Below, one piece after another: positions 1,882 through 60,981 of a stretch of DNA of 64,000 nucleotides; positions within the stretch are counted from its first letter, which is position 1; each line of letters starts with the position of its first letter. Under the pieces are notes generated by a model. It was given only the letters and a program-made list of their open reading frames with translations, had not been told where the DNA came from and ran no database searches. Source of the stretch: Naegleria gruberi (taxonomy: Eukaryota). The DNA lies in NCBI GenBank assembly GCA_000004985.1, contig GG738887.1; one strand, given 5' to 3'. The position numbers and the translations under genes are program-made.

Positions 1882-3450
1882 TTACCCTTCTCCAAAAAAT
1901 TCAATTTCAATCAAATGTGATACAGTCATCATTTTGGTCAATCCTCTTGTTGACTCTGAAATGTCACTCGGAAGAATGACTTGAATTGTCTTGCTGACTT
2001 CGTCTTCAGTGTGGCAATCTGTCAGAGTATGGAACACAATGACATTATTGTCTTGCTCCTTAAAGTCATCCAATAATGATCGATAGGAAGTTCTCTCCAC
2101 TACCTTGATGATTATTTCTTTGGATTTCACATCTAAAGCACAATCTTTAATATCTAGTGTGAACTGAATCACATCCTCTGGTATAAATACATTTCTTGTG
2201 AGCTCAATGTTACATTGACACGAGCTGCTCTCGCCGTAACTATAGTTGATTGGTTGCATACTAGCCGTTTCCTTAATGTGTACTGTAAATGAAGAAATAC
2301 AGCTCAAATACTGCTCTTCATAGTCACCATCCACATTTTGCAGCAAACACTGGACTGATGCATTGATTGTATAACTGATGGTTGCAAAGTTTTTCACAAT
2401 CGATGGTTCAATATTATCTGGGAGAGTGAAAGAAAATTCCAACATGTGTGCTCCCCTATAAAAAATACTTCTTCCAAACCTAGTCTCAATTTGTGTAATG
2501 ACATTTTCTTCAACAGATAATTGTGGATAGAATAAAGATTCCTTTCCCAAGAGGGTAATAATTGCCTGACTCATTTCCATTTTGATTGCATTTTTCAATT
2601 TCACATATCCTTTTACAGTTTCACCAGGTTTAAACTCTTTAGATTGTTTTTCGTATTGAATTGTAATTTCATAAGGTTGTGTTTCTGCAAAACTATTGTT
2701 AAACTTCTTTCTCTCCTCGGAATTCTTCTTCACCTTAATATTATTAGAGTGAGGAAGAATGTCAGGACTCGCCTCATAAGGAACTGCATACATAAGCTCG
2801 GAAGATTCCGACTCTGTTATCAATTCATCCTCTTCAGCAGCACTTTCCATCAACATTTCATCTACACTCTCTCCTAAACTAGAAGGCTCTGAAATTTCTT
2901 GCAACATGTCATTAGATTGACTTCGAAAACTAGTGGCATTCTTATATGGAGAGGAAGAGTCCAAAAACTCTTCGACTGGTTCAAGTATTTCAACTCTACT
3001 TGAGTCCAATTCCTTCTTCACTGCAGCTAAAGTGCGAGGAGAAACAATTGGAGAAGATTGAGGAAGGCCCTCTCCTGTTAATTGCTGTTTTTGGTTCTTT
3101 TTGAGGGTGAGAAAGTCTTGAAAGGAGACCATTGATGATGAATTATTTTCCTCAATAAGGCTCAAAGGTTTTATGGTAGAGATTGATACGGCTTCTTCTT
3201 CCTCATTGTATGATATTGGTTTTTCTGCAGTTTGTTCGACTGGTTGATCTTCCGAAATGGTTTGATTCGATAGTTGCTGTTCTTTCTCTGCTATTGTTAA
3301 ATCTTCAACCTCAACCTCCTCATCAACATTTTGTGGAGTATTTATCAGAACGGAGGCTGCCAGTTCCTTTCTTGATGTTGTGGCCATGCTCGAAAGAGAA
3401 GGTGTCGAGTCGAGCGATGTCATTCGATGAGGTGATATTGGCAGAGACAT
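1882..3450 (-). CDS. arrestin-fold (arrestin N/C domain-like) protein with a Ser/acidic-rich N-terminus
   Basis: 522-aa ORF; 'KPGETVKGYVKLKN...IITLLGKES' and 'ILPSDISES...VSHLIEIEF' resemble arrestin N- and C-domain hallmarks; the stop TAA overlaps a consensus GGTAAGT. Confidence 0.5.
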   Translation of the reverse strand: MSLPISPHRMTSLDSTPSLSSMATTSRKELAASVLINTPQNVDEEVEVEDLTIAEKEQQLSNQTISEDQPVEQTAEKPISYNEEEEAVSISTIKPLSLIEENNSSSMVSFQDFLTLKKNQKQQLTGEGLPQSSPIVSPRTLAAVKKELDSSRVEILEPVEEFLDSSSPYKNATSFRSQSNDMLQEISEPSSLGESVDEMLMESAAEEDELITESESSELMYAVPYEASPDILPHSNNIKVKKNSEERKKFNNSFAETQPYEITIQYEKQSKEFKPGETVKGYVKLKNAIKMEMSQAIITLLGKESLFYPQLSVEENVITQIETRFGRSIFYRGAHMLEFSFTLPDNIEPSIVKNFATISYTINASVQCLLQNVDGDYEEQYLSCISSFTVHIKETASMQPINYSYGESSSCQCNIELTRNVFIPEDVIQFTLDIKDCALDVKSKEIIIKVVERTSYRSLLDDFKEQDNNVIVFHTLTDCHTEDEVSKTIQVILPSDISESTRGLTKMMTVSHLIEIEFFGEG

Positions 3451-4191: not shown

Positions 4192-4550
4192 TTTTTTCAG
4201 TGTTGTTTGTTTTCATGTTGTAGTTTGGCGAGTAAATTGATTTGGGAATTGGCGGGAAATTTAGGAATGAGATGTTGTTAGGTTTATTTTAACAATTCTT
4301 ATTTCCTTCCATTCAAAGCAATACCAACAAACTGATAGCAAGTCAATATGATTATTATTGGACTCTAATTTTTTTACTCAAACACCTTTATTGTGGTCTT
4401 GTAATCTCAAACTGCATCATTCTATAGATTTATGCGCATTACAAAATATTTACTTGGAACATAGAGTTCCATAACAATACATCGTTACCAAACCATTCAC
4501 ATGACACACGTCAAAATTTGAATAACTAATTCTCTAAACAGCCAAAAAAT

Positions 4551-7067
4551 ATGTCAACACAACATCACTTTCCACATCAACACATTGTTGCAATGACATC
4601 TTCTCGGCAATACTCTCAAAGACACAAACCACTTCTTATCTTCTCCCTCATCTGTCTTATCCTATACGCAACAAGCCTTCAACCCCATCATCTCATCTCG
4701 GCACAACTTGCACGCTGTTCACCACTGATAAAAAATGGCGCCAACGCTGAGGATGCATTCTTCAGCTATTCTTATGCGAGTAGTGATTTTAATTTGACTT
4801 CATCTTCTGCGTCATCAGTTTCGAGTGCTGGAGAGTTTACTCACTATGTGGATACGCAAACGTATGTGAGTGGAGTTTCATCCAAGTGGAGACAATTTGA
4901 TGGAAATATGTTTTATGTTCTTGGTGTGGTGAATGTAGATGGAACAGTGGTAAATTCGGGAGGTGAAACTCTTCAAGAGGTGTTGAGTAGGAAGAAATCT
5001 GATGAGAGTGTTTCATTGTTGGATGTTGTTCCTTTTATTAGAAAATCAACATTTGCTATTAGCAGGAATACTGGTGACTATTCCATTAGTATGTACAAGA
5101 TGTATTTTGGACAAGGAAATGAAGCTAGGGATAATTTGACATCTGTGACTACTAGTAGCTCATCATTTGCTGGATTGAATGGTTATGACGCAAGTGGTAA
5201 TTTAATGACCATGATGAATGTGAAAAGTTTCAATGCAACTTCTTCAGTTTCTTTGGACCTTGAGTTTGGATACTATTCATCTAAATTGGAAACTGTGTTT
5301 ATTTTCACTTTGGGAGCCAGAGCTTACAATTCTTCTGGTTTCTCCTTGTACAATAGTAATTACAATATTAGATTGGATGGCTCAGCTATTGAGAGTATTC
5401 GAAAGTCATCAAGCGAGCAGCTAGTTCTCTCTTTCTATGTGAGTGATGCCAGCTATACAGGTTTATTTTCTTCTCTTGAGTATACTACAAAGGCACAGAT
5501 CTACCCATTTCCCACCACAGTTAGTGGCTTTAGTTATCAATTTGTGAAATTTAACATTTCTGATACTTCCAAAGTCACATGTTCAAACTATCCTAGAAGT
5601 GTTCTGTATTCTTCCTTCTTGAACACTACACTTGCTATTGATTGGATCCTATTCGGATTGGTAGTCCTATTGACTCCTCTCTTTTTAATTTTCAGAAACG
5701 AACAACCACTCAAGAGTCGTTTAATTGTTCCCTACCTAGGTATTGTCTTTTTACTGATTTTATTTATTGGAGTTCAATATTCGATAGATAGTACTAGGCC
5801 ATCAGAAATTAAGAGCATCATCAGTGTTTCATTCTTTATAATGTCTTTGTTTGCATTTATTTTCCAAGCTTTTCGTTATTATTATTTAAGATATCTCTAT
5901 TCTAAGGTATGTGGTAAATCAATCTTTTTGGGAAAAGCTAACCCAAAATGAACTATATAGACTGACATTAGTGTGAAACAATCCAGAATTAAGAAATTCC
6001 TTTCCTCCAAGACTGTTTTTGTAATAGCACTAGTTGTTTCAATGGTTTTAGGTATCATTTATCTTGTTGTAGTCTTATCAGTTGCCTTGACCTCAACTAG
6101 TGTAAGCACGAATGGAGTAAAGGAAGATGTAGAAGTGGAATATTATACAAGAATAGCAATCCCTGCCTTTACAGTTCTTATTTTAATTTCTTGCCTCCTT
6201 ATTGATATTTTGCTTAATATCAAATCATTCTTTGGTAATATTGGAAGATTCCTCTTCTTTGAGGATCCTCTATTTTTCAGATCTGAACTTTTGCTTGTCA
6301 TTCCAACATGTATCTTTTACGTGATAGAGTTTGTACTCAATTCTGGTAAGTAATTATTTTCCAATATACATTAACAACTTGTAGAAACTCGTCCATATAT
6401 TGATGGATCGCTCACAACTTTCCTCATTCCAAAGAACATTCATGAAATTAGAACAATGATTGGATTTTTTGGAATTTTCCGTTTCCTCAATCTATTCTGC
6501 TTTGTTCTCTTTTTTGGTGAGGCTCTCGTGCTAGCTGTTACCATTACACGAGTCATTAGGAGAAATTACAAGCGAGGCAAAAAGGGATTATCTCTTTTAC
6601 AACCACACAATAGTCCTCTAGGAATGTTCAGATCTAAATCAAGTTCTGAAGATGATATAATTGAGAACTTTGTATCAAAGGATGATGGACACAAGCTTTT
6701 AGAAGAATTTTCCAGAAATGAGTTTTCAATTGAGAATATTTTACTCTATGATATTTTACACCAGTTCCCTAATGAGAAGAATGATGAAAACAGAAGGAAA
6801 ATTCTCTTGGATATTTATCTGAAATTCATCATGTCAAACTCTGAGTTTGAAATTAATCTTTCATCTTCAACTCGTAAGGAATATTCCCAACTTATTGAAG
6901 ATTTACAGGATAACAAACCACTGCAACCAGATGAACTGATTCAAACCCTCAAGATTGAGGTTATTCAAAACATGGCAGATACATTCAGTCGTCTGGAAAT
7001 GTCTCCAGAATACAGTTCACTTCTTTCTAAATGGGAAACTGAAAAGGCAACAGCCCTTAAAATATAG
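4551..7067 (+). CDS. 7-transmembrane receptor-like protein with a C-terminal RGS domain (7TM-RGS) and a large Ser-rich extracellular N-domain
   Basis: exons 4551..5906, 5961..6345, 6385..7067 (introns 54 and 39 nt, GTATGT/GTAAGT...AG, frames continuous); signal/TM N-terminus; 3+3+1 predicted TM helices; RGS signature 'EFSRNEFSIENILLYDILHQF...IYLKFIMSNSEFEINLSS'. Confidence 0.6.
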
Positions 7068-7497: not shown

Positions 7498-8699
7498 ATG
7501 TCTGCCACTTTCGAATCAACAACAAGCAAACTCTTCACACCACTCACATTGGGAACTGACAAAATTCCAGCCAGTCAGAGAATTACTTTGTCCCATCGAA
7601 TTGTGATGGCTCCACTCACTCGTTGCAGAGCAGTGGATGTAAGTATTATCAACAATTTTCATCTTTAACTGTTAAACACAAATATTAGGGAGATTGTGAA
7701 CAAACAGAACATGCAATTACTTACTACTCTCAACGTGCCACACCAGGTGGTTTAATCATTGCTGAAGCTTCACAAATTACTCCACAAGGACAAGGATATC
7801 CATGTTCTCCAGGTTGTTATTCTGAAGCTCAGGTTAAAGCTTGGAAAAAGGTGACAGATGCTGTCCATCAAAAGGGAGGTGTCATCTTTTTGCAATTGTG
7901 GCATGTTGGTAGACAACGTTATGCTGACAATGTATCCTCTTCTGCAGTTCCAATTCAAAATGAAACATCTACAAATTTGAAAACCAGAGAACAACAATTG
8001 CCAACTACTCCAAAGGCATTGTCCATTGAGGAAATCAAGGTCATTATGGGACAATATAAGCAAGCTGCTAGAAATGCTAAATTGGCTGGATTTGATGGAG
8101 TAGAATTGCATGCTGCTAATGGTTATCTAGTTGACCAATTTTTACAAAATGGAGTTAATAAGAGAACTGATGAATATGGTGGTTCCATTGAAAATAGATT
8201 GAGATTTATGCGTGAAGCTATTTCAGCATGTATTGAAGGATTTGATAATCAATCTGATCGTGTTGGAATTCGTTTGAGTCCAAGTGGATGTTTCTTGGAA
8301 ATTAGTGATTCAGATCCAAAACCTCTCTTTGAGGCAGCTGTCAAGGCATTGGATGAATATGATTTGGCATATATTCACCTTGTAGAACCAAGAATATCAG
8401 GTGGAGCAAATTCAGATGATGGCCAAGCTGAATCCAAACCTGTGGTTGTAACCAAGGAATTGAACCCATTGACAAGATCTCCAATTATTTCAGCTGGTGG
8501 TTTTACTCCAGCCACAGCAAAGAGTACCACAGAAGAGGGTGCCACAGATATGATTGCTTTTGGAAGACACTTTATTTCTAATCCTGATTTGGTTGAAAGA
8601 ATTAGAAATGGTCATCCACTTAATCATTATGATAGAAGTACTTTCTATGGTTCCAAAGATGTTGTTACTGGTTATACCGATTATCCAACTTTTCAATAA
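7498..8699 (+). CDS. Old Yellow Enzyme family NADH:flavin oxidoreductase (12-oxophytodienoate/N-ethylmaleimide reductase-like)
   Basis: exons 7498..7638 and 7689..8699 (50-nt GTAAGT...AG intron); motifs 'YYSQRATPGGLIIAEASQI', 'HQKGGVIFLQLWHVGR', 'GFDGVELHAANGYLVDQFL'. Confidence 0.8.
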
Positions 8700-9651: not shown

Positions 9652-12238
9652 TTACAAACATGAACATTTCTTAGATTCCTCTGGAATCACTGGAAATGGT
9701 TGGAAATAGAGAGAATTAACTTGTTCTTGAGAGAGTTGGAATGAATAACCCTCACCTGCAATAAGTTTAACATTAACTTCATTGGTTGGAGAGGAAGCAG
9801 AAAGGGAATAAAGACCAAATTTACCATTTTCAAATTCATATGAAATACCATCATCCAAATAGAGAGAACCAGAGCATGTGCCATTTCCATAGGTTTCATA
9901 AACTATTGGGGATGTGAAATTGTCATAGACTGACTGTTTGCTTTCAGCTCTCATTGGAATAATAGAACCAGACTTGACAAGCATAACCATCTTGGAGAGA
10001 GTAATGTCAGTAAATTCTACGACTTGGCCTCCTTCATAGTGGGTTTTGTTGGTAAAATCAAACCATCCTCCTTCATGGTTTGGCAAGTAGACTCTTCTAC
10101 TTGTTGATTGACTTTGTAAAATAGGAGCTATCAAAATGGAATCACCAAACAATAATTGAGTATTTTCAAATTCTTCATTGTAGCATTCCTTTTCATGTGG
10201 GAAGTCCAACCATATTGGTCTAAGGAGTGGTTGATATGATTGTTTCTTATCGGTGGAGCGTTGAATTTGAGTGTAAATGTATGGAATCAATCGGTAACGA
10301 AGTTTGATAAAGTGTTGACATGCCTTTTCGCATTCCAAACCAAAGGCCCAAGGATTTTGCTCTAAAGTGTCCTTCATAGAGTGGCTTCTAAAGAATGGAT
10401 AGCAAACTGCCGCCATTCCAATCCATCTTGCATAAAGCTCTGGATTACAATCAGAAACGAAACCTCCAACGTCAGCTCCAACCATAACTTGACCTACAAG
10501 GGACATGTTCAAAAGCATGGCAATACTCAATTTCATATCCTCAAATGTAGAATTGTTATCTCCTGTCCAAGACCAGGCATACTTTTGAATGCCACTGTAT
10601 CCACTTCTTGTCAATAAGAATGGTCTGGTATTTGGTTGTAATCTTCTCAAACCTTCATGAGAAGCACGAGCCATTAAATGTCCATAAGCATTGTGAACAA
10701 ATCTGTGGGCTAGTTTGATTGTCTTGCCACTTTTTTGGGATAATTCATGTTCCACTGCCAATGTAAATGTCTTGGATGTTCCATCATTGAATACAGCTGG
10801 TTCATTCCTATGAATTTAAATTTGTTAACAAAAGGGAGTAATTAAAACTTACATATCATTCCAAAATGCCTGAATTCCATTATCCATCAAATTTTGGTAA
10901 TACTTTCCCCACCACAATCTCACTCTTTCATTGTAGTAATCTGGAAATTCACATCTATTAGGCCAAACTCTTTCCACATATTCCTCACCAGAAAGTTTAC
11001 ACCAGACATTTTCTTCAGAACCTTCTTTATAGACCTTATATGCCATTGGATTGTTTTCTGCCTTGCTGATACCTGGATCAATAATAGAAACGAAACGTTG
11101 TCTATTATTGAGCAGTAAATGATTTGCCAGTCCAATAGGATTTGGGAATTCAGTTTTGGAAATTGTAAAACACTCAAAATTATTCATATAATCAATGTCC
11201 AAATAAAAAACATCACATGGAACATCATGTTGAATGAATCCATCACTAATTTCTCTGACCTTTGATTCTGGATAGTAGCTCCATCTACATTGTTGGAAAC
11301 CGAGAGCGTACTGTGGTGGGAGAGAAGTTCTTCCCGTCAATTCATCAGTGAAGGACTGAACGAGAGCAAGTGGGCTTTCTCCGACTATTAAATAAACTGG
11401 AAGTGCACCATATCTTTCAACTGAAATCTTGATATTTTCAGAGGTGGTAAGATCCCACTCTTGCTTGCTAGTAGCATCAACAAAGATTGCATGACTCAAT
11501 TGTTGAGAATTTCCAGAGCAAAACATCAAGAATGGACATGATTGATACAATGGATCAGAATTGAATGAATATCCAAAGTGATCGTAGTTCCAAAACTTCC
11601 ACTTTCTTCCATCCTTTGACAAATTTCCAGACTTTTCTCCAAACCCATAACATTTGGTATGTTCTTGTGAAAATTCAATTAAAGTTTCATAACATTCTTG
11701 ATCTTCCCATGTATATGATGAATCTTCCTTGAAATATTTGGAGGTAGGATTCAGATTTTGAACTGGAATTTTATGAGTTTCATGTTTATGAGTGAGTTTG
11801 AAACCTCTCTGTAACACATGATCATCACTCACCTGAATTAAATCAAATGTAAAGTTTTCATAAACTCTCAAAAGGGTCTTTCCATTAGAACTAGACAAAT
11901 CCCATGAATGTTGATCATCATTTTGAACAATAGACAGTACGAGTGCTTGTTCAATCAAGTTAGTTTCATGCTCAACAGCAAATGATTCCAAAGTTTCATG
12001 ACTATTAGTTGTTAATAATAGTTTTGTTAAATAGTAAATATTAGAAATTTAGTTATGATAATCGTTGATATGGTGGTTAAAAGACTCACCTTTCCTTCGG
12101 ATCAGAGATGTCCAATCTCCACATATGATCGGAAAGAGCTCTAACACTGATTTTTACCTCTGGGTGAGAATCCACTGAAGAAAGAATAGCAACACGGCCT
12201 TCATCAACACTTTCACATTTGATTTTGTTTGCTGACAT
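9652..12238 (-). CDS. glycoside hydrolase family 31 alpha-glucosidase (neutral/glucosidase-II-alpha-like), 3 exons
   Basis: exons 12238..12090, 12001..10853, 10807..9652 (introns 88 and 45 nt, GTGAGT/GTAAGT...AG); the second splice rebuilds the GH31 catalytic motif 'FWNDM|NEPAVFN'; 'GADVGGF' downstream; no signal peptide seen. Confidence 0.8.
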
Positions 12239-16637: not shown

Positions 16638-19600
16638 ATGTCTGAAAAGCCTGTTGTTGGAGACTATAGCGTCGAGTATTCCAAGTCGAACCGATCAACA
16701 TGTAAATTAACCAACAAAACCATCAAGAAGGACGCGCTTCGTATTGGTAAAATTGTACAGTCGCAATCTTTTGATGGTACCTATCCGATATGGTACAATT
16801 TCGAAGGTAGGTTTTTAACTTGGTGATGATCATCAACATGTTATAATTGTTGCTTTTTTGATCGTACAATATCTTGTTTGGATCACTCTTTATTGCTTTT
16901 ATGTATGATGATATTTGTGTGAATACCTATGTTGTATTATCTTTTATCTTGTGTGGAAAATTAAATCATTTGATGATGATGAATGTGGACGAAACAATCA
17001 CCGATACAGATTGGGCAAAGGATAAGAAACTTGTTAAAGAATTCCAAACAAAATGCAAGAAGGTTCATGGTTTGTCCAAGATTCGTCTCGAAGATCAAGA
17101 ACGTATCAAGAAATTGATGGGACAATCAAGTGATGATGCTAATGGTGCTAGTGATGATAATCTCTCCGAAGAACAAAAGCAAAAGAAGAAGGAATTTGAA
17201 GAGGAAAACAAAAAGATTTGGGAAATTAAAGACAAACTTAAGAAGTTAAAGTCTTTACCATTACTGAGATCAATGCTCTCAGAGAATGATCAAATTGAAA
17301 AGGGAGGTGAAGATTTATTAATTGATAGATGTGCTCTTGGATTATTGTTTGGTAACTTGCCTGCTTGTCCAAATGATGAATGTGAAGATGGATATATGAC
17401 CTTCGCAGGTGGTGTATTTAAATGTAAGTAGTTTTTCACCATTTTCAAAATGTGGTGTTAAAATATCAAATTCTAATACATGTTATCTTCAGGTCATGGT
17501 AAATTACCTTGGGCAAAGTGTGACTACACATTATCTGTTGATGATGCATATGAAAAGGCAAAAGACTGGATTATTCCAGATGATATTGCCGAATCTAAAC
17601 AATTTGAAGATTTTGAATTTAAAAAACACAAAAAATGTAACTTTGCTTTGGATACAACTGTTCGTGCACCTGTTGCCTCTTCAAGTGAAGAAAAGAAAGA
17701 GGAAGAAGAGGAAAAGGAAGAAATTGATCCAGAAAAGGAAAAATTACCACTTGGTAATTTCAAGATTGCTTGCTCTGGTAAATTGAGTATGAAACAAAGT
17801 GAATTGCAAGAAATTATTGAAGAAAATGGTGCTACATTCTTGAAAGATGTTTCAAGTGGTTGTACTCACTTGGTTTGCTCAGAAAGTGAATATGATAAGG
17901 AAACAACCAAAGTTAAAAAAGCCAAGAAACAAGGCGTTTTAATTGTTGATGAAGATTGGATTCACATGTCTGTTGAGAAGGAAAGAAAATTGACAGAAGA
18001 TGAAACAAAGGAATATGTACATTACAATCCTCAAGATAAAAAGAGAAAAAAGGAAGAAACTGAAGAAGAAGAAGGTGAAGGACAAGCAGTTCCAAAGAAG
18101 AAGAAGGTAACCATTAAAGGAAGAGCTGCAGTTGATGAAGATTGTGAAGATGCTGATGTTTTACATGTCTATGAAAAGGGTGATGATATTTACTCTGTAC
18201 ATTTGAACTTGACAGATTTATCTACTGGTGCTAATTCTTACTATGTTGTTCAACTTTTGGAACATGATACTAGAAAGAATTATTATGTATTTAGAAAATG
18301 GGGTAGATTGAATACAAATATTGGTTCAAACAAACTCACTGAATATGGATCTGATTTATCATCTGCCAAATCAGAATTTGAAAATACTTATTATGACAAG
18401 ACTGGTAATTATTGGTATGATAGACACAATTTCCAAAAGAGACCTGGTAAATTCTTACCAATTGATGTTGACTATGGTTCAGATGAAACTGATTTGGATA
18501 AGTTACAATCAGAAATGAAGAAGGATTATAAGGGTAAATTGCATCCAGAAATTGCCAACTTGGTCAAATTAATCTTTGACGTTCAAACAATGAAGCAAAC
18601 ATTGAAAGAAATTGAAATTGATACTGAAAAGTTACCTCTTGGTAAATTGAAAAAGTCACACATTTCAAAGGGTTATGAAGTGTTAACAGAAATTCAAAAT
18701 CTCATTAAGAGTGTTCGTGAAAAGGAGAAGGAAGCAGGTGTATTTATGGAAGATGATCCACCAGCAACATCTTCAGTTGATACAACCACAACTGCCACTC
18801 CTTCATCATCAGTTGATGCCACTTCTGCTCCAGTTGATAGTTCAAGTGCTACTCCTTCTGCAACTCCTTCATCATCAGCTGATGTCGCTTCAAGTGCACC
18901 TGCTGCTGTTGTTGAAAAACCTAAGAAACCTAAAACTTCAATTCATCAACAATTCAAACAACAATTCCTCACCCTCTCCAACAAGTTCTATACCATCATT
19001 CCAACTTCAAATCCAGAAATCATTGATGATGAAGATGCTTTGAGTGCAAAGGTTAAGATGATTGAAGCTTTACAAGAAATGGAAATTGCCACCTCACTCT
19101 TGAAGAAGGATGACGAAAGTGAAGAAGATCCATTAGATGGATACTATAAGAAGTTAAAGACTCACCTCGAACCACTCGGCAAGGATAGTGACATGTTCAA
19201 GATGGTTGACACTTATTTGCAAAATACTCACGCCTCTACCCATCGTGAATTCTCACTTGAATTATTGGATGCCTTTGAAGTTGACCGTGAAGGAGAAGGT
19301 GAAAGATTTAAGAAGTATGAGGATTTACACAATCGTAGATTATTGTGGCACGGAAGTAGAGTTTCAAACTTTTGTGGTATCCTTTCTCAAGGTTTGAGAA
19401 TTGCTCCTCCAGAAGCTCCAGTTACAGGGTAAGTCAACTTCGTTCAATATTCTTTTTTAACAATTTTTCTATCCATATTTGTTGTAACTATGTAACATTT
19501 TTATTATTTCAATTTTATAGTTATATGTGTAAGTAGTTTAATTATTTCACTCATTTGTTTAAAACTAAATTGTTAACAGTTGGTAAGGGTATTTACTTTG

Positions 19601-32726: not shown

Positions 32727-35700
32727 ATGTGTAAGTAATTAACAACCCTAACATCAGTCATTAATCACCCAATAATCAAATAATCCATCCTGTTGATTAG
32801 CAAGTGATATTAAAGGAACATTGACCAAGATTAAAGGTGGTAGTGTTCAAAATCGTTTGGCAGCCATTGGTGCTTTATTTTCTTTAGCATCAGATGATGA
32901 TATTAGAGAGGAAATTAGAAATATGGGAGGAATTGGTACTCTTGTTGGATGTTTAGAGGATAATTCTGATCCACGTATTCCTAGACAAGCCTGTGGTGCT
33001 CTCTTGTAAGTTTTTTATTACCAACTAATTTACTTACATAATAATTATTTAATATTATAATTATAATAATTATTAATTGAATGATGATTGTTTATTTATA
33101 TTATATCTATCTAGAAACATGGCAAATGATGATCAATGTAGAGAGGAAATTCGTGATTATGGTGGTGTTGAATTGATGCTCAAGCTTATTGAAAATCAAT
33201 TCAAAGATGCAACCAGTGTTGAATATGCTACAGGTGCCTTGCTAAATTTGAGCTCTGACGATGACACTAGAGAAATGGTTAGAGAAGCTGATGGTGCTCG
33301 TATTTTGGCTCGTTGCTTGTCTGATGCTCCAAGTGAAGAATCTAGAAGAAACTCTGTTGGTGCCATTGCTCAATTGTGCTTTGATCAAGAATTTACTAAA
33401 CAATTGGTTTCTGGAGATGCTTTGAAACACATTGTTGAATGTTTAAACTCAAGTGATGAAGAAACCAGAAACAGGACCTCAGGTTGTATCTGGAATTTGA
33501 GTGTTACTGCTGATGAAACTAGAGAAGCTTTGGCTCGTGAAGGTTGTTTGGAAAGTTTGGTCAATTTATTGCAAAAAAGTGAGGATGTTAATGAAGATCC
33601 TGAAACTGTTGGTAATTGTGTAATGTAAGTTTTATATAATTATATAGAAATATTCTAATTTTAACATTTTACAATAATTACTATTGCACTACATTATATT
33701 GTCAAATGTATGATGTTTAAACAGGTGTCTTTCAATTTTAAGTTCAAATGACATGGTTGCTGAAACTTTACGTGAAATGGACGGATGTTTCGAAATGATT
33801 ATTAAATTATTGAGTAATTCTGATTCTACTATTGCTCAAAATGCTGCGGCTGCCGTTTGGAATTTGGCTCACAATGATGATAACAAGAAGGTTTTGGCCA
33901 ATTTGGACACAATGGCATCTTTGATTCCACTTTTGGATTCTTTCAACTCTGCTTCCGATTGGGAAGCTTTGGAAAAAGTTTTGGGTGCTGTTTTAACTAG
34001 CAGTACCAATGACAATATGGCTGATCAATTCCGTGAAAATTCTGGATTTGGTCCACTCAAGACAATCATTGAAGGCAAGGTTGATCCAACCACTATTCAA
34101 AATGACCAACATAAGAAGTGTGTATTATATGGTATTATTGGATTTGCCGTTTTGGCTTACAATGATAAGAATAAGGATGAGATTCGTGAATGTGGAGCTA
34201 TTGCTGACTTGATTGAATTACTTTCTTTGGAGTATGATGACGATTTACTTGAAAAGGTTACTGCAGCCATTTTGAACTTGACTCACAATATTGAAAATAG
34301 AACAGCCATTCGTAAGCTTGACGGTATTTCAGTTCTTATTGAGCTTCTCTACCATCACAATGAAACCATCTCAATGAACTCTGCTGGTTGTTTGTGGAAT
34401 TTGAGTAACGACGAGGCTTGTAAAGCAGTTATTCGATCTTTGGGTGGTTTAAAGCCATTGTTAGCTTTGATTGGAGGTGGCAAGGTTGAACCACGTTCAA
34501 AGAAGGACAGAAAGATTTCAAAGGAAGCTATTGAAGCTGCCAATCGTCTTGTTGAAGGTGAAGAAGAAGAATCTGAACCAGTTCCAGAAGAAAAATTCGA
34601 TGTTATGGAATTTGTTGAAGACATCTTCAATCCAAAGAAGGACTTTGAAAAGTTGGACGATGAGGATGGATCTTCTGATAAGAAGAAACCTCAAGTCAAC
34701 AGAAATGGTGAACAAAGAACCACTACTGGTGCTGGTGTTGAATATGGTGAAGAAACTGGCATGACTCCTGCCAAGATCATTGTTGGTGCTGCTCGTATCG
34801 ATATTAAGAACAGAAGAAAGGTTGCAGAGGCCGAACGTGAAAAGAAGGAGGCAGAAGAAAGAGAAGCCAGAAGAAAGGAACGTGAAGAAAGAGAACGTGA
34901 AAGAAAACGTAAGGAAGAAGAAGAAAAGAAGAGAAAGGAAGAGGAGGAAAAGAAGAGACAAAAGGAAGAGGAGGAGAGAAAGAAGAAACTTGAAGCCGAA
35001 ATGAAAAAGAAGGCTGAAGAGGAAGCTGAAAAGGAAAGACTCCGTTTGCTTGCTGAAGCTGAACAAACAAAGAATCAACTTAAGGAAGCTTTCAATGCCA
35101 AACACAAGAGAAAGGGTGTTAAGGATGAAGACATTGATTGGGATGAAATCTATGAAGATGGATTCACTCCTTCTGCTACTAAGGATGAAGCCAAGGACAA
35201 GTTGGAAGGTCAAATTGATGAATATTCCAATCTCATTGACCCATTCAATAATAATGGTGTTTATGATCAACTCACTCCTGATGATATCAAATTCATTGAA
35301 AGTGAAATTGAAAGAGCTAAACGTTTCCTCGCTGAAAATCCAAATGCTACCAAGGAACAAATTGATGATGCCAGAAGAGAACTTGATGCCAATGTCAAAC
35401 CAATCATTGAAAGAGCTAAGGCCAGAAAGGTTCTTGGCGACATGACCACCAGCATCAGAGATCGTCTCTTGAATGACTCTGAATTGTTGAACAATTTGAC
35501 TCCTGAAGAAAGAAAGGAATTAGAACAAGCTGTTGCTGAAATGGAACAATGGTTACGTGACCATCCAGATGCTACCAAGGAAGAAATTGAAGAAAAGGAA
35601 CGTGAATTGCTTGCCAAGATTAAGCCAATTTTGGCTCGTGCTGCTACCAGAAATGATTTGGAAAATTATGCTCATGATTTGAGAAAGAAGGCAGCCAATG

Positions 35701-38700
35701 AAGATGATGACATTGATTTTGACTTGTTGGGTGATGAAGATAAGGGTACTTTCCATGATGCTATCAAGGAAATTGAAGATTTCTTACTTGAACATCCAAA
35801 TGCCTCTGCTCAAGATATTGAGGACAAGAAGGATGAAGTCAAGAGGCGCATTGATCCAATCATTAAGAAGGCCAAGGCCAAGAAGGATCTCTTACAATAT
35901 GCTGCTGACATGAGAGATAGATTGAACAATGATCATGATTTGAAGAAGAGACTCACTCCAGAAGAAAAGAGATCTATTGAAACTGCTTTGGATGACTTTG
36001 ACAAGTGGATTAAAAACCATCCAAATGCTGATGCTGAAAGCTTGAACAAGCAAAAACAAAGACTCAAACAAAAGTTGGATCCAATCGTTTCCAGAGCTGA
36101 TGCTCACAACAACTTGGACGAATACATCAACAGAACAAGAAAGAGAATTGATGATAATGATGATTTGGGTGAATTGTTGGATGATGCTGACAAGAGAACT
36201 CTTCAAAAGGAATTGAAGGATGCTGAAGAATTCTTGAAGAAGGTCGAAAAGGAACCAGTCAAATTCACTGCTGAAGAAATCGACAACAAGAAGAAGGAAA
36301 TCAAGGAAAAGCTTGCCCCTCTTATTGAAAAGGCTGAAAAGAGAAGAGAACTCAAGGACTATGCCAGCCAAATTCGTGACATTGCAAGCAATGATAATGA
36401 ACTTGCTGAATTTATCACACCAAAGGAAAGAAAGTTGCTCGAAAATGAGGCTAAGGAACTTTCTGACTGGGTAAAAAACAATAAGAAGGCCACTCCTCAA
36501 CAAGTTGAAGAGAGAAGAAAGAAGGCTGAAGAAAAGGTTCAACCAATCTTGGATAATGCCAATCAAAGAAAGGCTCTCAAGGAAACTGTTCAAAGATTGA
36601 GAGATCGTTTGAATGATGACAAGTATGTCGAAAAGTTGAAACCAGAAGAAAAGAAGGCTCTCAAGGATGCTGCTGATGAATTGGCCAACTTTTTGGCTAA
36701 GAATCCAGAAGCTTCTGCCAAGGAAATTGAACAACAAAGAGAAAAGACCAATGAAAAGGTTCTTCCAATCTTGGACAGAGTTAGAGAACAAATCTCACTC
36801 GAAAATCATGTTAACAATGTTAGAGATAAGGTTAGAGATGATCCAGCATTGAACAAATTCTTATCTGATAAGGAGAAGAAGGCCATTGAAAAGGCTGCTC
36901 AAGATGTTGAAAAAGTCCTTGCTAGTAAACCATCCATTAAGGATACCAAGAAGGCAAGAGAAGATTTCAATGATGCTGTCAAGCCTCTCCTTGAAAATGC
37001 TGCTGCTAGATCTAAACTTGCAATCTATGGTGATAAGGTTTTGGATGATGTCTTGTCTGATCCACATACAAGTGATAAGGATAAGGAAGCTGTCAAGAAG
37101 GCAAAGAAGGAATTGATTGATGACTTTTTGGCTAAGAATCCAGATGCCACTAAGGAACAACTTGATCAACAAAGAAAGAAGTTCGATGAAGCTGTTGCTC
37201 CAATCACTGATCGTATTAATAAGAAGAAGGAATTGGAAAGAAAGATCAATGATATCAAGAGAAAGTTGGATGATCCAGATTCTGCAATCTGTTCAAAGGC
37301 AACCCCAGAAGAAAGACAATATTTGGCCTCAAAGGTTGATGAATTGTCTAAATTCTTGAAGGAAAATCCAAATGCCTCTGCTAAACAATTGGAAGAAAAG
37401 ATTAACGAATTCAACTCTCAAGTCGAACCAATTGCCAAGACATGCGAAAAGAGAGACCAATTAGAAAAGCAAGCAAACACTATCAGAGACAGATTAGTTG
37501 ATCCAAATGACGATCTCAACAAGTATATGAGTGAATCTGAGAAGACTCAACTCAGAGACGCTACCAATGAAGCTCTTCGTTTCTTGGAAAAGAATCCATC
37601 TTGCTCATCCTCAGAAGTTGCTCAAGCCAAGAAGAAATTGGACGATAAGACCAAGGAATTGGTTGAAAAGGCCAAGGCTAAGGGTGGTTTGTATAAGAGA
37701 GCTGGTGGACTTCTTTCTGATGTTAACAATTATGGTGAAGGCGGTCTTGGAGGTAAATTGAACAGTGTTGAAAAGAGCGAAATTGCTGATAAATGCAATG
37801 ATATCATCAATCACTTGAACAAGAATCCAAACCTCTCAACCAAGCAAATCAAGGAAAAGGAGAAGGAACTCAACAAGGTTGTTGCTCCAATTCTTGATAA
37901 GATCAGAGAAAGAGACAATCTCCGTGAAATTATTAATGGTATTCGTGATCAAATCTTCAATATTGATGATAAACTTGAAGATGACAAGTCAGATGCTTCC
38001 TCTGATTCTGACAGTGATCGTGAAGATTTGGAAGATTTATTGGATGGACCAATCAAGAAGTCTAAGGCTCAAAGAGATGAAAAGGGTAAGACCGACAAGT
38101 TGGGTAACTTCTTGTCCAACGAGGAAAAGAAGAAGATTGACGAAACTACCAAACAAGCATTGCAAGCTATTGATTCTGATCCAAATCTTTCAGTCTCTGA
38201 CTTGAAGGAACAAGCAAGAAACCTCAAGCAAGACACTGAAAATATCTTGAAGGCTGCCAAGACCAGATCTGATCTCAACGACTATTTGAATAACATTCGT
38301 GAACAAGTCAAGGATGAAGATGGTATGATTGCTAATCACTTGAGTGAAAAGGATAAGAAGTTGATTGATGAAACTATTAATGAAGCACTCAACTGGTTGA
38401 ATAAGGAAGGTGCTAATGCTACACCAGAAGCCGTTGAAAAGAAGAAGAAACAAGTTATGGACAAGATTGATCCAGTCATTCGTAATGCCAAGCAAAGAGG
38501 TGAATTGGAATCAATTGCTAACAAGGTTAAGCAACGTTTAGAAGATGATGTTGATTTGACATCAGCTCTCAGTGAAAAGGACAAGAAGGCATTACATGAT
38601 GAAGTTCAAGAAATTCTTGATTTCTTGAAGAAGAATCCTAATGCTACTCCTGAACAAATTCAACAAAAGAAGAAGCAATTCGAGGAAAGAGTTCTTCCAA

Positions 38701-40871
38701 TTCTTGAAAAGGCTGAAGCCAGAAACAAGTTGAAGGATTTGACCAATGAACTCCGTACCAGACTCTATGATGAAGATGATCTTGGAAACAAGCTCAGTGA
38801 AGCTGATAAGAAGAAGGTTGAAAAGTTGATTGATGAAGCTGTTGACTTTTTGGAAACTAATCCAGATGCTTCAAAGGAAAAGATTGATCAAAAGAGACAT
38901 GCTTTGGAATCCAATGTCATGCCAATTATCAAGAAGGCTGAAAAGGCCAAGAAGGCTGCTGACTATGCATCTGCAATTAGAGACAATTTGGAAAATGATT
39001 CTCTCCTTAAGGATGCTCTCACTCAAGAAGAAAAGAAATTGATTGATACTCACACCAAGGATTTGCTTGACTGGATTGAAAAGAATGCAGCCACTGCTAC
39101 TTCTAATGAAATTAGTGATAAGGAAAGACAATGTAAGGAAAAGGTTGATCCAATCCTCAATAAGGCCAAGGCAAGAAATGCTCTCAAGGAAGATATTGAA
39201 AAGTTGTATGAAAAGTTGAATGATGAAAACAAGCACAAGTTCTCTGAAAAGGAAAAGAAGGCCATTCTCGATGAAATCAATAAGGCCAATGACTACCTTG
39301 ATACAGTTGCCAAGAATCCAAATACCACTTCTGATGATATTGAAAAGAAGAGAAACGAATTGAAGATTGCCACTCAACCATTGGTTCAAAAGGCCAAACA
39401 AAGAAAGGAATTGCAAGAATATGCTGCAGGTGTTCGTGATAAACTCCAAAATGATAGCAAGCTCACCTCTCGTATGACTCCAGAAGAAAAGAAGACCCTT
39501 GATAATGCTGCTAAGGAAGCTCTTGACTGGGTCAACAAACATGGTGATGATGCCTCATTGAATGATTTGAAGGAAAAGTTGCGTCAAACTAAAGCTAAGG
39601 TTGAAGCTACTATGCAACGTGCTGAGAAACATCAAAAGTTGGAAGATATGGCCAACAAGATCAAGGATAAGGTTGAAGGTGATTTGAAGGACTGCATGTC
39701 TTCAGAAGAAAAGAAGACTGTTCTCCAAGAAGTTCAAAAGACTCTCGATTGGTTGAACAAGAATAAGACTGCTCCAATTGGTGAAGTTGAAGCTCAACAA
39801 AGAGCTCTCGAAAATAAGATTGCTCCAATTATGGAAAAGGCTCAAACCAAGAAGGATTTGGCTGACTTTGCTAATACTGTTAGAGACAGATTGAAGAATG
39901 ATAAGGAACTTGCCAGTCTCTTGTCAGCTGAAGAAAAGAAGGCCATCAATGATGCTGTCCAAGAAACTCTTGATTGGTTGAACAAGAATCCAAATGCTTC
40001 TCTTGCTGAGTTGAAGGATAGAAAGAAGAAATTGGAAGATGTTGTTAACAATGTTCTTGGTGATAAGGAAGCTGCTGAAAACTTTAGAAATTATGCTGAA
40101 AAGGTTTTGGAAGTCTTGAAGAAGAATAAGCAAGTTCAAAAGGACTTGACTGATGAAGAAAAGCGTGCCATTCAAGACTTTGCTGAAGAAGCCAGAGATT
40201 GGTTATTAGAAAATCCAAATGCCACTGCCAGACAAATCAGAATGGAAAAGAAGAGATTGGAAGAAAAGTTGGGCAAGATTAAGAAATTCAAATTTGAAAT
40301 TCCTGCCACTCACTACATTGGTAACTTCTCAGAACGTACCAGATGGGGTGATGACAGTAAGCGTACCAAAGATATCAACTCATTATTGGGTTCATACATT
40401 AAGAAGGGTGACAAGGTTGCTACTACTCCTGTCAAGCCAACAGCCACCTCTACTCCAACAAAGACTCCACAAAGAAATTTGAAACCAGTTGCCACTCCAA
40501 AGAAGCTCACCAAGGAAGAAGAAGAAGAAATGAAATTGTTCGATACCATGAAGTTCAATAAGGGTGGTTTGATTCAAGCTAAATTACAAAGTCTCATGGG
40601 AAGTGTTGGCTCTGCAAGTGCTGTCAGCGGTTCAGTTGTTGAAGAAGAAGAAGAACCAGCTGTTGTTTATCCATACTCTGAATTGAAGAATAACAAGCAA
40701 AAGAAGTATCCATCAGGTATTGACATTAACAAGAGAGAACAATACTTGAGCAATGATGAATTCCAACAAATTTTCAAGATGTCTCGTGATGAATTCAAAA
40801 ACTTGCCAGAATTCAGACAAACCAAATTGAAGAGAGATGCTGAATTATTTGCCTATGCTTATGAACTTTAA
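32727..40871 (+). CDS. giant (~2,600 aa) multidomain protein: armadillo repeats, then an E/K/R-rich single-alpha-helix segment, then ~22 tandem Hsp70-lid-like helical repeats, then a C-terminal villin headpiece (VHP) domain
   Basis: exons 32727..32730 (ATG+T), 32801..33005, 33115..33624, 33725..40871 (introns 70, 109 and 100 nt, all GTAAGT...AG with continuous frames); ARM units (GALLNLSSDDD..., AVWNLAHNDDN...); charged block 34795..35060; repeats 35190..40290; C-terminus 'YLSNDEFQQIFKMSRDEFKNLPEFRQTKLKRDAELF' is a VHP. Confidence 0.7.
35190..40290 (+). repeat. in-frame tandem array of ~22 diverged ~72-75-aa coding repeats (Hsp70 SBD-alpha lid-like unit)
   Basis: each unit follows ...[R/K]xxLxxYAxxxRxxLxxDxxLxxxLxxEEKKxIxxAxxExxxWLxxNPNA[ST]xxExxxKxKELxxxxxPIxxKA...; it aligns column by column with human HSPA8 '[72 protein letters not shown]'. 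Confidence 0.7.
40731..40868 (+). other. villin-headpiece (VHP) F-actin-binding domain at the C-terminus of the giant protein
   Basis: 'LSNDEFQQIFKMSRDEFKNLPEFRQTKLKRDAELF' versus the villin HP '[35 protein letters not shown]'. Confidence 0.75.
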
Positions 40872-42566: not shown

Positions 42567-45513
42567 TTACAAAAGCTTGGTGAGCTTATCGAATCTTGGA
42601 GGATCATTTGGATCTGTACGTTTTTGAATTTCTTTCTGAATAACTACTAAATCTGAAGATGCTCTATTTTTGACAATTTCGTTTCTGAATATTTCTGGAG
42701 AACGATTATTGATTTGTTCGAATGCCTCACAAATTTTGTCAATGAGCATATCATAAACTCGTTTGGAATACTTTTTCTGTTCAAATTGATCAGAACTAAG
42801 GAAGGTGCTCGAACCCAATGTTCTATAAACACTATTGGCTTGCTTGCACATGGTAATGAATGGTGTTGGATTCTTATCATTTACATTAGTCCAATTATAA
42901 TTTGGAATTTCAGATAGTTGGTATTTGAGAGCATCACCCAGAATTGAGACAATCTTTTCGAAAATAGCAATTCTGTGCTCTAGTAAATCAGTTATAAAAT
43001 CTCCAAATTTGACAAGTTGCTTCTTCTGACCCTCTTGAAGTGCTGTTTCAATCTTGGATTGAATGTAAGGCATCAAGAGAATCAAATAATGCAAACAATC
43101 AGAGGCCAGGATTAAATGTTTTGGTGTTATACTTGTGATGGCACTATTGACCTCTCTTGCCTTGGCCATGAGTACCAATTCTTTGAGTTCTGAATTGTAA
43201 ACTTGCAATAATTGCAAAATTCTTCCATGAAGATCAATTGCACTAATAAATGAAAAATCGTTTGATAATAGCTGAGAATATTGATAGATAAACTTGAGTA
43301 GGCAGAGAGCACTGGTAGATAATTTGAATTTGATACCATTGGCTAAAATATAAGATGATTTGTCTTCTTCTGCAGTCTTGGCATTCTTCTGGGAGGTAGT
43401 AGAGGCAGGAACAGTTGTTGGAGGAGGTAAAGACATGGCTTGAGCTTCACCAGTCAATAGGAATGCACACTTTTGATACTTTTCAGGAATGGATGGCACG
43501 GCTTCCCAAGTATCTCTGGCAAGTCTCTTCTTTAATCTTTGGACATAAGTGGTGTGGAAATCATCCAAAAATACCTGTCCATGATGTTGTAATTTTCCTT
43601 TCAGTATGGTACATTTCTTATAAACCATACTGTCTGATTTGGTGATGAATTTACTACCTGTAGCCATGTATGTGGAAAATAGAGTTGGTGAAAATTTGGA
43701 AATGACCTTATCAATACCAGAGCAAAAGTTTGAAAGTTGTTGTTGAGTACTCTCGTGCATGAAGGATTGAATTTTGGCAACTTCACGGCCTAGGTTTTTC
43801 AGTTTTACAGTATTAATGATAATCTTGTCGGTACTGGAATCGGCTTTCTCATTTTCTTCTTTGCAAAATTGATCCACAGCAAAGCAAAAATCTGTAAATC
43901 TCTGGAGTTTAATTAGGGCTAATGAAACAATGGAATCAAACTGAATTTAAATGTGTCATCAAGGCAAATGTTACAAAATTACTTACACTCTTACACCATG
44001 AATCTGCCAAATCTTTGGTCACTTCGGTGGAGGGTGTGAAAACTGGTGGCTTGATCGATTTCATCAGCTCTTCAGTCTCTGAAGGTACTAGCTTTTTGGC
44101 ATGAGCCATTACAGGTACTGCAAGATTTCTGTATAGAGTGGCTTTCAATAATGAAGCGAGTTTAGTGTTCCAATCTGAAGAAGTCGTATCCTTTTGAAGT
44201 ATTTCAGCTATTAATTCCGAAATTTCTTGTTTGATTGTCATGTCGATTACACCTAATTCAACTTCAATTTCTTTTGGTATGTGCTTTAGGCAGTTAACAT
44301 TGCTCAGTTCACTGTGTTCCTGAAGAGTAGATTCAATAGTATTGATAATTTCAAGGGCTGATAAGACGTCCCCTCTATTTGCAACCATAACCTTGACAGC
44401 AGTCAGACTTTGTTGAATAGAATCAATCAAGACAATATACTCCAATGTCTTGGTTAGATTTTGCTTTTTTCTTACAAGATTACCAACTTCCAAAGGTTTC
44501 AAAACAGCATTCTCCTCATATTTCTTAATTTTAGATCTTAAAGATCCAACTAGAGGTATAGAGCTGATCAGTGTTTCATACAGATCATTGTATTGCATCA
44601 TGGAATCGAAAATTTCACTGGATCTCTTATTGACCTGAGTTTGAACTTGGTTTTCAACCTGATCCAGATAATAACTCAATTTCTCCTGCAAGAGTAGTGA
44701 TGCAGATTCATTCTCCGAGCTAAAAACCTTATTGAAATAAGTTGGTGTTGAAAGTTCAAAATTTTCATCAAAAAAGTAGGCAGGTACGCCCTCTCTCCTT
44801 GACATGTAATCCACAATGTTAAGATTACTTGTTAAACTCTTTTCCGATTTGTGTGGCACCAACTTTGTCATTTCTCGATTAAATGTTTCTATTAATTGAA
44901 TATATTCTTTAAAACTATCAATATTAATAGAATCTCCGAATGTTGGTGAAATTGTTGATGGTGATGTTGTTACATTTCTATTATTTACATTCTTTACTTT
45001 CGGGTTTTTCACAAAACACGATTCTACATTTACATCTTCAAATTTTCTAGCATCAACATTTGCAATTGCTTTAAAATCCTCATCCGTCAAATCATGAATT
45101 TCCATTAATTGTTTTTCCAATAATTCAGCCGATGTTAATGAAGTAGCACTATTCAATGAAGAACTACTACTTGATCCAAACCATGATGAAAACAGTGTTG
45201 ATAAACTTGGTGATGAATTATTCAAAGCCTTCGGATCATTCAAAACCGATGAAAAATCCATGTTATTATATGAAGTAAATGATGAGTAATACTTGTTAAT
45301 ACGATCTCTCGGTGCTATATTTTGAAACTCTTCTTCCATCCTCGTTAAACGTTCTCTTGCTGATGGCGTTGATATAAAACTGGGCAAACTCTCATCTTCT
45401 GTATTGTTGTTGCTTCCTGCTGTTGTTGTTTTGTTAGTCTTCACTGTTTGGACGCTGAGAATTTCTATTGAAAAATCATCATCATCCGATTCTATTTTTC
45501 GTTTATTTTCCAT
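42567..45513 (-). CDS. large helical protein, tentatively a vesicle-tethering complex subunit (Vps54/GARP-like), ≥2 exons
   Basis: two long minus ORFs (45513..43936 and 43877..42567) in different frames separated by a GTAAGT-containing gap near 43880-43940; Ser-rich N-terminus and helical C-terminus; the family assignment is weak. Confidence 0.3.
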
Positions 45514-60236: not shown

Positions 60237-60981
60237 TTTTTTTTCAATCAAAAACTGAAGCTATTGATTGAAGATGGAACGGAAAGTGTTGTGCTTCCGA
60301 TCCAGAGCCATGTTTGCTTTCTTAATTGCTATTAAATGGAATAAGAAATTCCGATTAGTATTAATGAAAGTAGGTTGGGATTTTAAATTGATTGAGGGAG
60401 GTTGAATGATATATTTATTTGCTACTGATTGAGGAAGCACAGTTAGAAAACAATAGAGTTCTTCCTTAATATAATCAGTAACATTGAAAAGATACTATTG
60501 TTAATTCAAACAAGGAACATAAATTTCAAAGCTCAACTGAAACATCCTTTTAGTTAAATGAAGTTATTGCTAAGTGAGGTCTTCAACTTGAAATGAGATA
60601 TATTGTGTGGGTTTAACATAAAGGAATGGTTTCATTATCTTCCCCATGATCTGGAGATTATTCAATAGACCTGTTAAAGAGATCAAATCTCCATAATAAG
60701 ATCCAGAATCTTAAAGATGAAAATTCCGCTTCCTATCCAGATTTTCCGCACAACCACACAATCACAATCTTTGTTATCATTCTCACCTCAGCAGAAGTAA
60801 CAACAAATCATCAACTGTACCTCAGCAGTAACAAGAAAAACCATTTGAAAAAAAAATTGTTTAAGGTCGTGCTCGTCATTATTGTGCATGAAGAAAGTGG
60901 CCATTGTATTGTCATGTTGGTGGCTCTTGTTCATCGCTTGGAATTGCATGCACGAGTGGCTAGTATGGAAGATAACTGTTC

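Follow-up and report, generated by a model that had tools for sequence, protein, structure and literature searches.

Gene model and exon structure

Three open reading frames (ORFs) lie between positions 4551 and 7067 on the plus strand of a 64,000-nucleotide stretch of Naegleria gruberi contig GG738887.1 (hereafter the window), and they raise the question whether a seven-transmembrane (7TM) receptor and a regulator of G-protein signalling (RGS) domain are encoded here by a single gene. The analysis showed that 4551-7067 is one real three-exon gene for a 7TM receptor with a built-in RGS domain, of which a model had previously been deposited. The product of this gene, NAEGRDRAFT_70963, would consist of a signal peptide or anchor, an outward-facing ectodomain, a bundle of seven helices, a basic linker and a cytoplasmic RGS box, and most likely works as a 'receptor-GAP' (GAP, GTPase-accelerating protein).

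Splicing of 4551-5906, 5961-6345 and 6385-7067 gave 2424 nt, corresponding to 807 codons and a stop. The 807-aa product is identical residue for residue to the N. gruberi entries EFC41175.1, XP_002673919.1 and D2VPS1, so that the exon coordinates of the original prediction, which had been drawn from the sequence alone, agree exactly with the deposited model. The locus is annotated only as "predicted protein". The parts of the gene are listed in Table 1.

A mis-joined gene model was considered, in which the RGS ORF (6456-7067) would be a gene of its own, or one of the two short introns would represent a gene boundary or retained sequence. An ATG at 6456 does start an ORF of 203 aa. This ORF would, however, begin inside the seventh transmembrane (TM) segment, and its frame is open upstream to 6375, just beyond the 3' splice site of intron 2, which is consistent with the 24 stop-free codons ahead of the ATG that had been taken as support for the junction. 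An independent profile hidden Markov model (HMM) of the family, built from 21 members with the N. gruberi protein and its two closest orthologs excluded, matched exactly three ORFs in the 64-kb window, all colinear: HMM positions 17-114 on 4530-5948 (E 6e-19), 123-244 on 5961-6350 (E 1e-20) and 254-435 on 6375-7064 (E 5e-39). The RGS ORF is therefore not a separate gene. The positions and phases of both introns are also conserved in Naegleria lovaniensis, and the fusion is likewise kept by dozens of environmental relatives and by three further genera of Heterolobosea. The claim of a single gene thus withstood this comparison, and a mis-joined model can be considered essentially excluded. A coding gene on the opposite strand was rejected as well, as no minus-strand ORF of at least 100 aa overlaps 4551-7067.

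Introns

The lengths of both introns are multiples of three, and each intron contains two in-frame stops; read-through is therefore impossible and removal is required. The splice signals are canonical in both (GTAAGT/GTATGT, YTAAC, YAG). The ortholog gene of N. lovaniensis (PYSW02000007.1, L001 6001-9095) has four introns of 197, 107, ~148 and 83 nt. Its 107-nt phase-0 intron is located at the residue homologous to the N. gruberi junction after aa 452, and its ~148-nt phase-1 intron at the residue homologous to the junction after aa 580, while the remaining two, placed after N. gruberi aa 386 and aa 691, are missing from the N. gruberi gene. In N. lovaniensis the shared introns have two to four times the length of their N. 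gruberi equivalents, which measure 54 and 39 nt. Because intron 2 keeps a conserved position and phase, the 39-nt intron is a shortened older intron and not an artefact. As judged from the two sequences, the comparison indicates that these congeners differ by intron loss or gain in addition to shrinkage, and the locus offers a clean case of both, with one intron reduced from about 148 to 39 nt.

The length of intron 2 had been pointed out as close to the lower limit for spliceosomal introns. Its existence is supported by the in-frame stops, the splice signals and the conserved position, but its smallness is not remarkable in this genome. A scan across the window for GTA[AT]GT...YAG segments restoring ORF continuity gave candidate introns of 41, 45, 45, 46, 47, 49, 50, 51 and 54 nt, many of them with a YTAAC-like motif close to the 3' end, and the 45-nt candidate at 10808-10852 joins two ORFs whose matches to the GH31 catalytic-domain profile follow one upon the other. 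The published genome-wide mean intron length of N. gruberi is 203 bp, and the annotators of Naegleria fowleri used a minimum intron length of 30 bp, based on predicted genes (PMC8296547). The 39-nt intron is the shortest found here and stands at the short end, yet it is no outlier and not exceptional for the genome.

Some of the other candidates could be placed in genes. The 45-nt candidate sits in a GH31 alpha-glucosidase gene (9652-11991, minus strand), and a 50-nt candidate (7639-7688) in a gene for an Old-Yellow-Enzyme-type flavin oxidoreductase (7499-8699, plus strand), both supported by domain continuity. A putative 41-nt intron (21563-21603, minus strand) adjoins an anoctamin/TMC-like ORF.

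Membrane topology and seven-helix core

Hydropathy analysis (Kyte-Doolittle, 19-residue window, threshold 1.6) assigned three TM segments to exon 1 (aa 359-381, 391-409 and 423-441), three to exon 2 (aa 473-491, 519-537 and 560-578) and one to exon 3 (aa 614-632), giving eight hydrophobic segments in total when the N-terminal stretch of aa 27-45 is added. Hydropathy and the AlphaFold model concur on seven TM helices, distributed 3+3+1 among the exons as had been proposed. All seven lie N-terminal to the RGS box in a single polypeptide.

The N-terminal signal or TM segment of the original prediction was recognized in the hydrophobic residues 27-45, which are preceded by R19, R24 and K26. This segment could be a signal anchor or a signal peptide, which would then presumably be cleaved. 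The annotated start (window 4551-4595, aa 1-15) results in a His/Gln-rich lead of 26 residues ahead of the hydrophobic core. Translation from a second Met, at aa 15 (nt 4593), would make a more typical signal peptide than the annotated start; the environmental relative P0009 starts near aa 15 in the alignment, and M15 may be the true start codon.

Direct reading of the sequence showed strongly basic loops after TM1 (RNEQPLKSR) and after TM3 (RYYYLRYLYSK...KQSRIKK), and a strongly basic stretch after TM7 (RVIRRNYKRGKK); the basic residues RRNYKRGKK follow the cytoplasmic helical extension of TM7. The loop after TM4 is acidic. With loops 1 and 2 and the post-TM7 stretch basic, an N-out/C-in orientation with a cytoplasmic RGS box therefore fits. 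EQPLKSR (aa 384-390) then forms intracellular loop 1, and RYYY (aa 442-445) the cytoplasmic end of TM3.

A core model of aa 340-807 was made with AlphaFold2 from a 24-sequence family alignment (mean pLDDT 82.7, pTM 0.76). It displayed seven long helices, a disordered linker at aa ~650-666 and a helical C-terminal bundle. A fold search with this model retrieved G-protein-coupled receptor (GPCR) bundles together with RGS4, and Foldseek repeated both groups with weak E-values. At E<=1, the Pfam models 7tm_1, 7tm_2, 7tm_3, Dicty_CAR and Frizzled matched neither the N. gruberi protein nor a single one of the 24 family members. As modelled, the seven-helix bundle is GPCR-like in fold, without clear affinity to a class.

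The GPCR fold of the bundle could point to a conventional receptor, in which the bundle is a ligand-activated exchange factor for a slow-exchanging Gα and the RGS tail limits the receptor's own signal. The invariant Arg that closes TM3 on the cytoplasmic side and the invariant DPLxFR ahead of TM6 are situated where GPCRs contact G proteins, and slow-exchanging Gα subunits also occur in Naegleria. The bundle, however, is without sequence similarity to the Pfam GPCR families in 24 out of 24 members, and exchange-factor activity of 7TM-RGS proteins is not reported in PMC3971589 or PMC9283941, which makes a conventional GPCR unlikely.

RGS domain

The predicted C-terminal RGS domain was recovered with Pfam: PF00615 matched aa 677-783 (E 7e-9, 36.5 bits against a gathering score of 23.9), and the two motifs quoted for it earlier, FSIENILLYDILHQF and IYLKFIMSNSEFEINLSS, are present in the sequence. 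A PDB sequence search returned RGS10, RGS18, RGS4, RGS12 and RGS17. In an alignment with an RGS4 sequence whose numbering reproduced the published contact residues, S85, E87, N88, E126 and N128 correspond to S695, E697, N698, E736 and N738. The segment N-M-A-D-T-F-S-R-L (aa 776-784, with D779 and R783) was aligned by eye to N-L-M-E-K-D-S-Y-R-R-F of RGS4 (D163, R167). E697, N698, N738 and R783 are invariant in the 24 family members, and D779 and T780 are found in at least 90% of them. The protein hence carries a canonical RGS box at its cytoplasmic C-terminus with the Gα contact residues of active RGS domains.

The conservation of these contact residues favours a putatively active GAP over a scaffold-type RGS-homology domain. 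According to the latter explanation, the RGS domain would be non-catalytic, as in GRKs, axin and sorting nexins, and would act otherwise than by GTPase acceleration. GAP activity has indeed been lost in some RGS domains (PMC3971589). The best fold and sequence matches, however, are the R4-type GAPs RGS4, RGS3 and RGS10, no family member varies in the Gα contacts, among them the counterpart of Asn128, and three of the four N. fowleri 7TM-RGS domains tested are active GAPs, so a scaffold role appears quite improbable.

Ectodomain

The ectodomain is rich in Ser (19% over aa 53-345; Thr 7.5%), as originally described, although its length is about 300 aa (aa ~46-348) and not ~330 aa. The stretch aa 1-350 contains five N-x-S/T sequons. 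The protein would be type-I-oriented, with an outward, lineage-specific ectodomain that could be glycosylated. A Pfam scan gave no family match in this region, and apart from a single environmental fragment, a similar ectodomain could be detected in N. lovaniensis and Willaertia alone. Structure prediction from a 4-sequence alignment gave an unusable model (pLDDT 39.5). GPS (PF01825) did not match the N. gruberi protein at E<=1, and REJ and PKD likewise gave no Pfam match. A juxtamembrane GPS motif was rejected as a candidate: V-T-C-S-N-Y-P departs from the GPS consensus and Pfam was negative.

Relatives and the conserved core

An exhaustive HMMER search of 1.84 billion representatives (E<=1e-3) yielded 272 related proteins. 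Among the top 150 representative clusters, 54 matched the 7TM region as well as the RGS box, and roughly 40 more have at least five hydrophobic segments directly upstream of the RGS box. All named relatives are heterolobosean (N. lovaniensis, Willaertia magna and Acrasis kona), the others originating from metagenome contigs, and in all three named species the ortholog shows the 7TM-RGS fusion. The N. lovaniensis ortholog (P0006, 852 aa) is 42% identical to the N. gruberi protein (E 5e-135); taken by region, the ectodomains are 29%, the 7TM regions 47% and the RGS boxes 44% identical.

The core of the family has motifs of its own: QPxKSR follows TM1, TM3 ends on its cytoplasmic side with an invariant Arg (R-Y), and D-P-L-x-F-R, likewise invariant, precedes TM6. 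The N. gruberi protein possesses all family motifs (QPxKSR, R-Y, DPLxFR, EFSxEN, ExN and DTFSR) and is homologous across both regions to the heterolobosean and environmental 7TM-RGS core family (alignment A1). The ectodomains of the relatives are wholly different and comprise GPS alone, REJ with GPS, PKD with GPS, or an alpha/beta-hydrolase.

Such varied ectodomains were seen in the metagenome relatives P0011, P0012, P0016, P0023, P0020, P0026 and P0037, with GPS in P0011, P0012, P0016 and P0023. The hydrolase-type ectodomain is labelled 'pimeloyl-ACP methyl ester carboxylesterase' by one source, and the literature consulted makes no mention of a 7TM-RGS protein with an ectodomain of hydrolase fold.

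A word-indexed full-length search came back empty, even for the N. gruberi protein itself; the orphan protein that this suggested was rejected in view of the 272 HMMER relatives. The representative of the protein's 90% cluster is a 103-aa fragment, which is the likely reason why this search missed the protein itself, although a limit of 8000 candidates may have contributed. With alignment A1, the word-indexed search gave five matches. The environmental fragments P0002 (103 aa), P0008 (116 aa) and P0009 (140 aa), from ENA contigs, match single exons. P0002 agrees with aa 480-580 at 100% identity, beyond which it seems to run on into intron 2, and all three have the appearance of ORFs called in prokaryote style from unspliced, Naegleria-like DNA.

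A further explanation holds that the seven-helix core is a distinct GPCR-like class, that its fusion to RGS arose independently of plant RGS1, and that the ectodomain is a new ligand-binding module confined to the lineage of Naegleria and Willaertia. Several findings speak for it. The core is covered by no Pfam model, has its own invariant cytoplasmic signature (the Arg at the TM3 end and DPLxFR before TM6) and is widespread in uncultured protists. Among the relatives recovered with a query that itself contained RGS, it is nearly always followed by an RGS box. The core would thus be a chassis onto which ectodomains of the GPS/REJ/PKD, alpha/beta-hydrolase or orphan Ser-rich type are grafted. 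We regard this explanation as possible but rather improbable.

Proposed mode of action

As a receptor-GAP, the protein would use its membrane-tethered RGS box to bind the transition state of one or more Naegleria Gα subunits, including fast-exchanging 'self-activating' ones. The RGS box would speed GTP hydrolysis by Gα and so hold the pathway off in the GDP state. An extracellular cue, sensed by the ectodomain or by the 7TM bundle, would change the access of the GAP to Gα, either through a conformational change or through removal from the membrane, and Gα-GTP signalling would be released. The GAP activity, Gα partners, surface localisation and ligand control included in this scheme are those suggested by the published family and by the plant work, whereas gene structure, topology, the GPCR-like and RGS folds, the conserved Gα contacts and the retention of the fusion across Heterolobosea follow from the present data.

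Several points weigh against this reading. For this protein itself, GAP activity, localisation and ligand control are all assigned by analogy, and the authors of the N. fowleri study state that a receptor function of the 7TM-RGS proteins and its control by ligands are still unproven (PMC9283941). The ectodomain has no recognisable fold, so its role as a 'sensor' is an assumption. The residue mapping depends on the RGS4 reference sequence that was used, though the PDB alignments show the same motifs. The support for the introns comes from sequence signals and comparative conservation, and the N. lovaniensis gene model behind the intron comparison is a prediction too.

Genomic neighbourhood

The window is nuclear DNA of the heterolobosean amoeba N. 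gruberi NEG-M. The neighbouring single-exon genes at 247-1521 and 1882-3450 (minus strand), like the 7TM-RGS gene, match N. gruberi RefSeq proteins of a 508-kb scaffold exactly, and the GC content is about 31-40% over the first 12 kb of the window. The gene at 1882-3450 encodes a 522-aa arrestin-domain protein, XP_002673997.1 (Arrestin_N, E 2e-8; Arrestin_C, E 2.5e-13). It lies ~1.1 kb from the start codon of the 7TM-RGS gene on the divergent side, and a single small gene separates the two. Internalisation of receptors is a task of arrestin-like proteins. The proximity is suggestive and may well be chance, as the neighbours of the N. lovaniensis ortholog are different (PIF1 and UvrD helicases and a WD40/gelsolin protein).

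A profile scan combined with annotation of the large ORFs revealed no Gα, Gβ or second RGS gene in the window. The idea that another part of the window encodes a paralog or a further G-protein component was also rejected, since the family profile only matched the 7TM-RGS gene and the large ORFs are unrelated. Besides the genes listed in Table 1, the region 14000-64000 contains genes for an NHL-repeat protein, an amidase and a WD40 protein.

Table 1. Parts of the 7TM-RGS gene and other annotated genes, in window coordinates.
Feature	Position	Strand	Description and evidence
Exon 1	4551..5906	+	aa 1-452: start codon, putative signal/anchor, ectodomain, TM1-TM3; translation, XP_002673919.1 match
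N-terminal hydrophobic segment	4629..4685	+	aa 27-45, R19/R24/K26 before; hydropathy peak 1.74
Ectodomain (predicted)	4686..5594	+	aa ~46-348; composition; no Pfam match
TM1-TM3	5595..5906	+	aa 349-452; hydropathy, AlphaFold model, family motifs
Intron 1	5907..5960	+	54 nt, phase 0, GTATGT ... GCTAAC ... TATAG
Exon 2	5961..6345	+	aa 453-580 plus 1 nt: TM4-TM6, DPLFFR aa 554-559 before TM6
Intron 2	6346..6384	+	39 nt, phase 1, GTAAGT ... TTAAC ... TGTAG
Exon 3	6385..7067	+	aa 581-807, stop 7065-7067: extracellular loop 3, TM7, basic linker, RGS
TM7 and cytoplasmic helical extension	6438..6572	+	aa 599-643; core-model helix 260-304, hydropathy
RGS fold	6648..7061	+	aa 669-806; Pfam match aa 677-783 = nt 6672-6992
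PARP with BRCT/WGR domains	17480-19432		
MACPF protein	24387-25946		
Copine	30013-31698		
Armadillo/villin-headpiece protein	33753-40871		2372 aa
Vps54	42567-45513		
HSP90	58110-60251		

Comparison with known systems

7TM-RGS proteins form a recognised class, reported from plants, many 'bikonts', chytrids, filastereans and ichthyosporeans (PMC3971589), and N. gruberi is credited with 229 RGS genes (PMC5784254). In N. fowleri, 28 7TM-RGS proteins have been described, some with GPS motifs, EGF repeats or lectin domains (Bosch, Jeck & Siderovski, J Biol Chem 2022, PMC9283941). Of the four RGS domains assayed in that study, those of 7TM RGS2-4 speed GTP hydrolysis on several Gα subunits, fast-exchanging self-activating ones included; the active domains bind the AlF4- state and are blocked by a Gly-to-Ser mutation in switch I (PMC9283941). 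Like the N. gruberi protein, the N. fowleri proteins have a variable extracellular N-terminus, seven TM segments and a C-terminal canonical RGS box with conserved Gα contacts, and the N. lovaniensis ortholog shows that the gene is shared within the genus. The studied 7TM RGS1-4 of N. fowleri carry GPS motifs, EGF-like repeats or lectin domains, whereas the N. gruberi protein lacks all of them and has an orphan Ser-rich ectodomain instead. A literature search by accession found no paper that cites the accessions of this gene. The protein is thus a not individually described member of the published Naegleria 7TM-RGS family.

The finding is real and was rightly interpreted, yet it is ordinary, as the model was already deposited and the family has been published in Naegleria. 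Taken alone, the gene is a small gain, one more functionally unannotated member of a partly characterised family. Of wider relevance is a 7TM-RGS core that is conserved over Heterolobosea and many environmental eukaryotes while its ectodomains are swapped freely. Mildly novel are only this Pfam-less core, which has motifs of its own and ectodomains that can be exchanged, the orphan ectodomain, and the shrinkage of introns between the species.

Adhesion GPCRs and polycystin-1-like receptors are characterized by GPS, REJ and PKD regions, for which the N. gruberi protein gave no match; moreover, adhesion GPCRs are without an RGS box, and the 7TM region studied here is without a 7tm_2 match. For the GprK-type class VI receptors of Aspergillus and for 7TM-RGS proteins of other lineages, Trichomonas included, the same domain order has been reported (PMC3971589, PMC9283941).

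One parallel drawn in the original prediction was with AtRGS1 of Arabidopsis, whose architecture was said to be the same. For this comparison, a set of 15 real plant RGS1 sequences was collected with an AtRGS1 query, which showed 100% identity to an A. thaliana fragment and 93% to Camelina RGS1. In plant RGS1, as in the N. gruberi protein, a 7TM region is followed by a cytoplasmic RGS box, and both presumably share a common logic, namely that of a membrane receptor-GAP on self-activating Gα. The RGS boxes of plant RGS1 and of the A1 family are homologous (hhalign probability 96%, E 2e-9). However, hhalign detected no homology of the 7TM regions, as only the RGS columns 310-401 of A1 and 296-386 of the 15 plant sequences were aligned. 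Plant RGS1 has almost no ectodomain, compared with about 300 aa in the N. gruberi protein, and its consensus is devoid of the family motifs QPxKSR, R-Y and DPLxFR. Some plant RGS1 entries have a precomputed 7tm_3 match, whereas none of the 24 members of the N. gruberi family matches any 7tm Pfam model. The likeness to AtRGS1 consequently concerns architecture and probable mode of action, and not a demonstrable homology of the 7TM region. In this profile comparison the heterolobosean core is without detectable kinship to the 7TM region of plant RGS1, which bears on the question of a single origin or multiple origins of receptor-GAPs.

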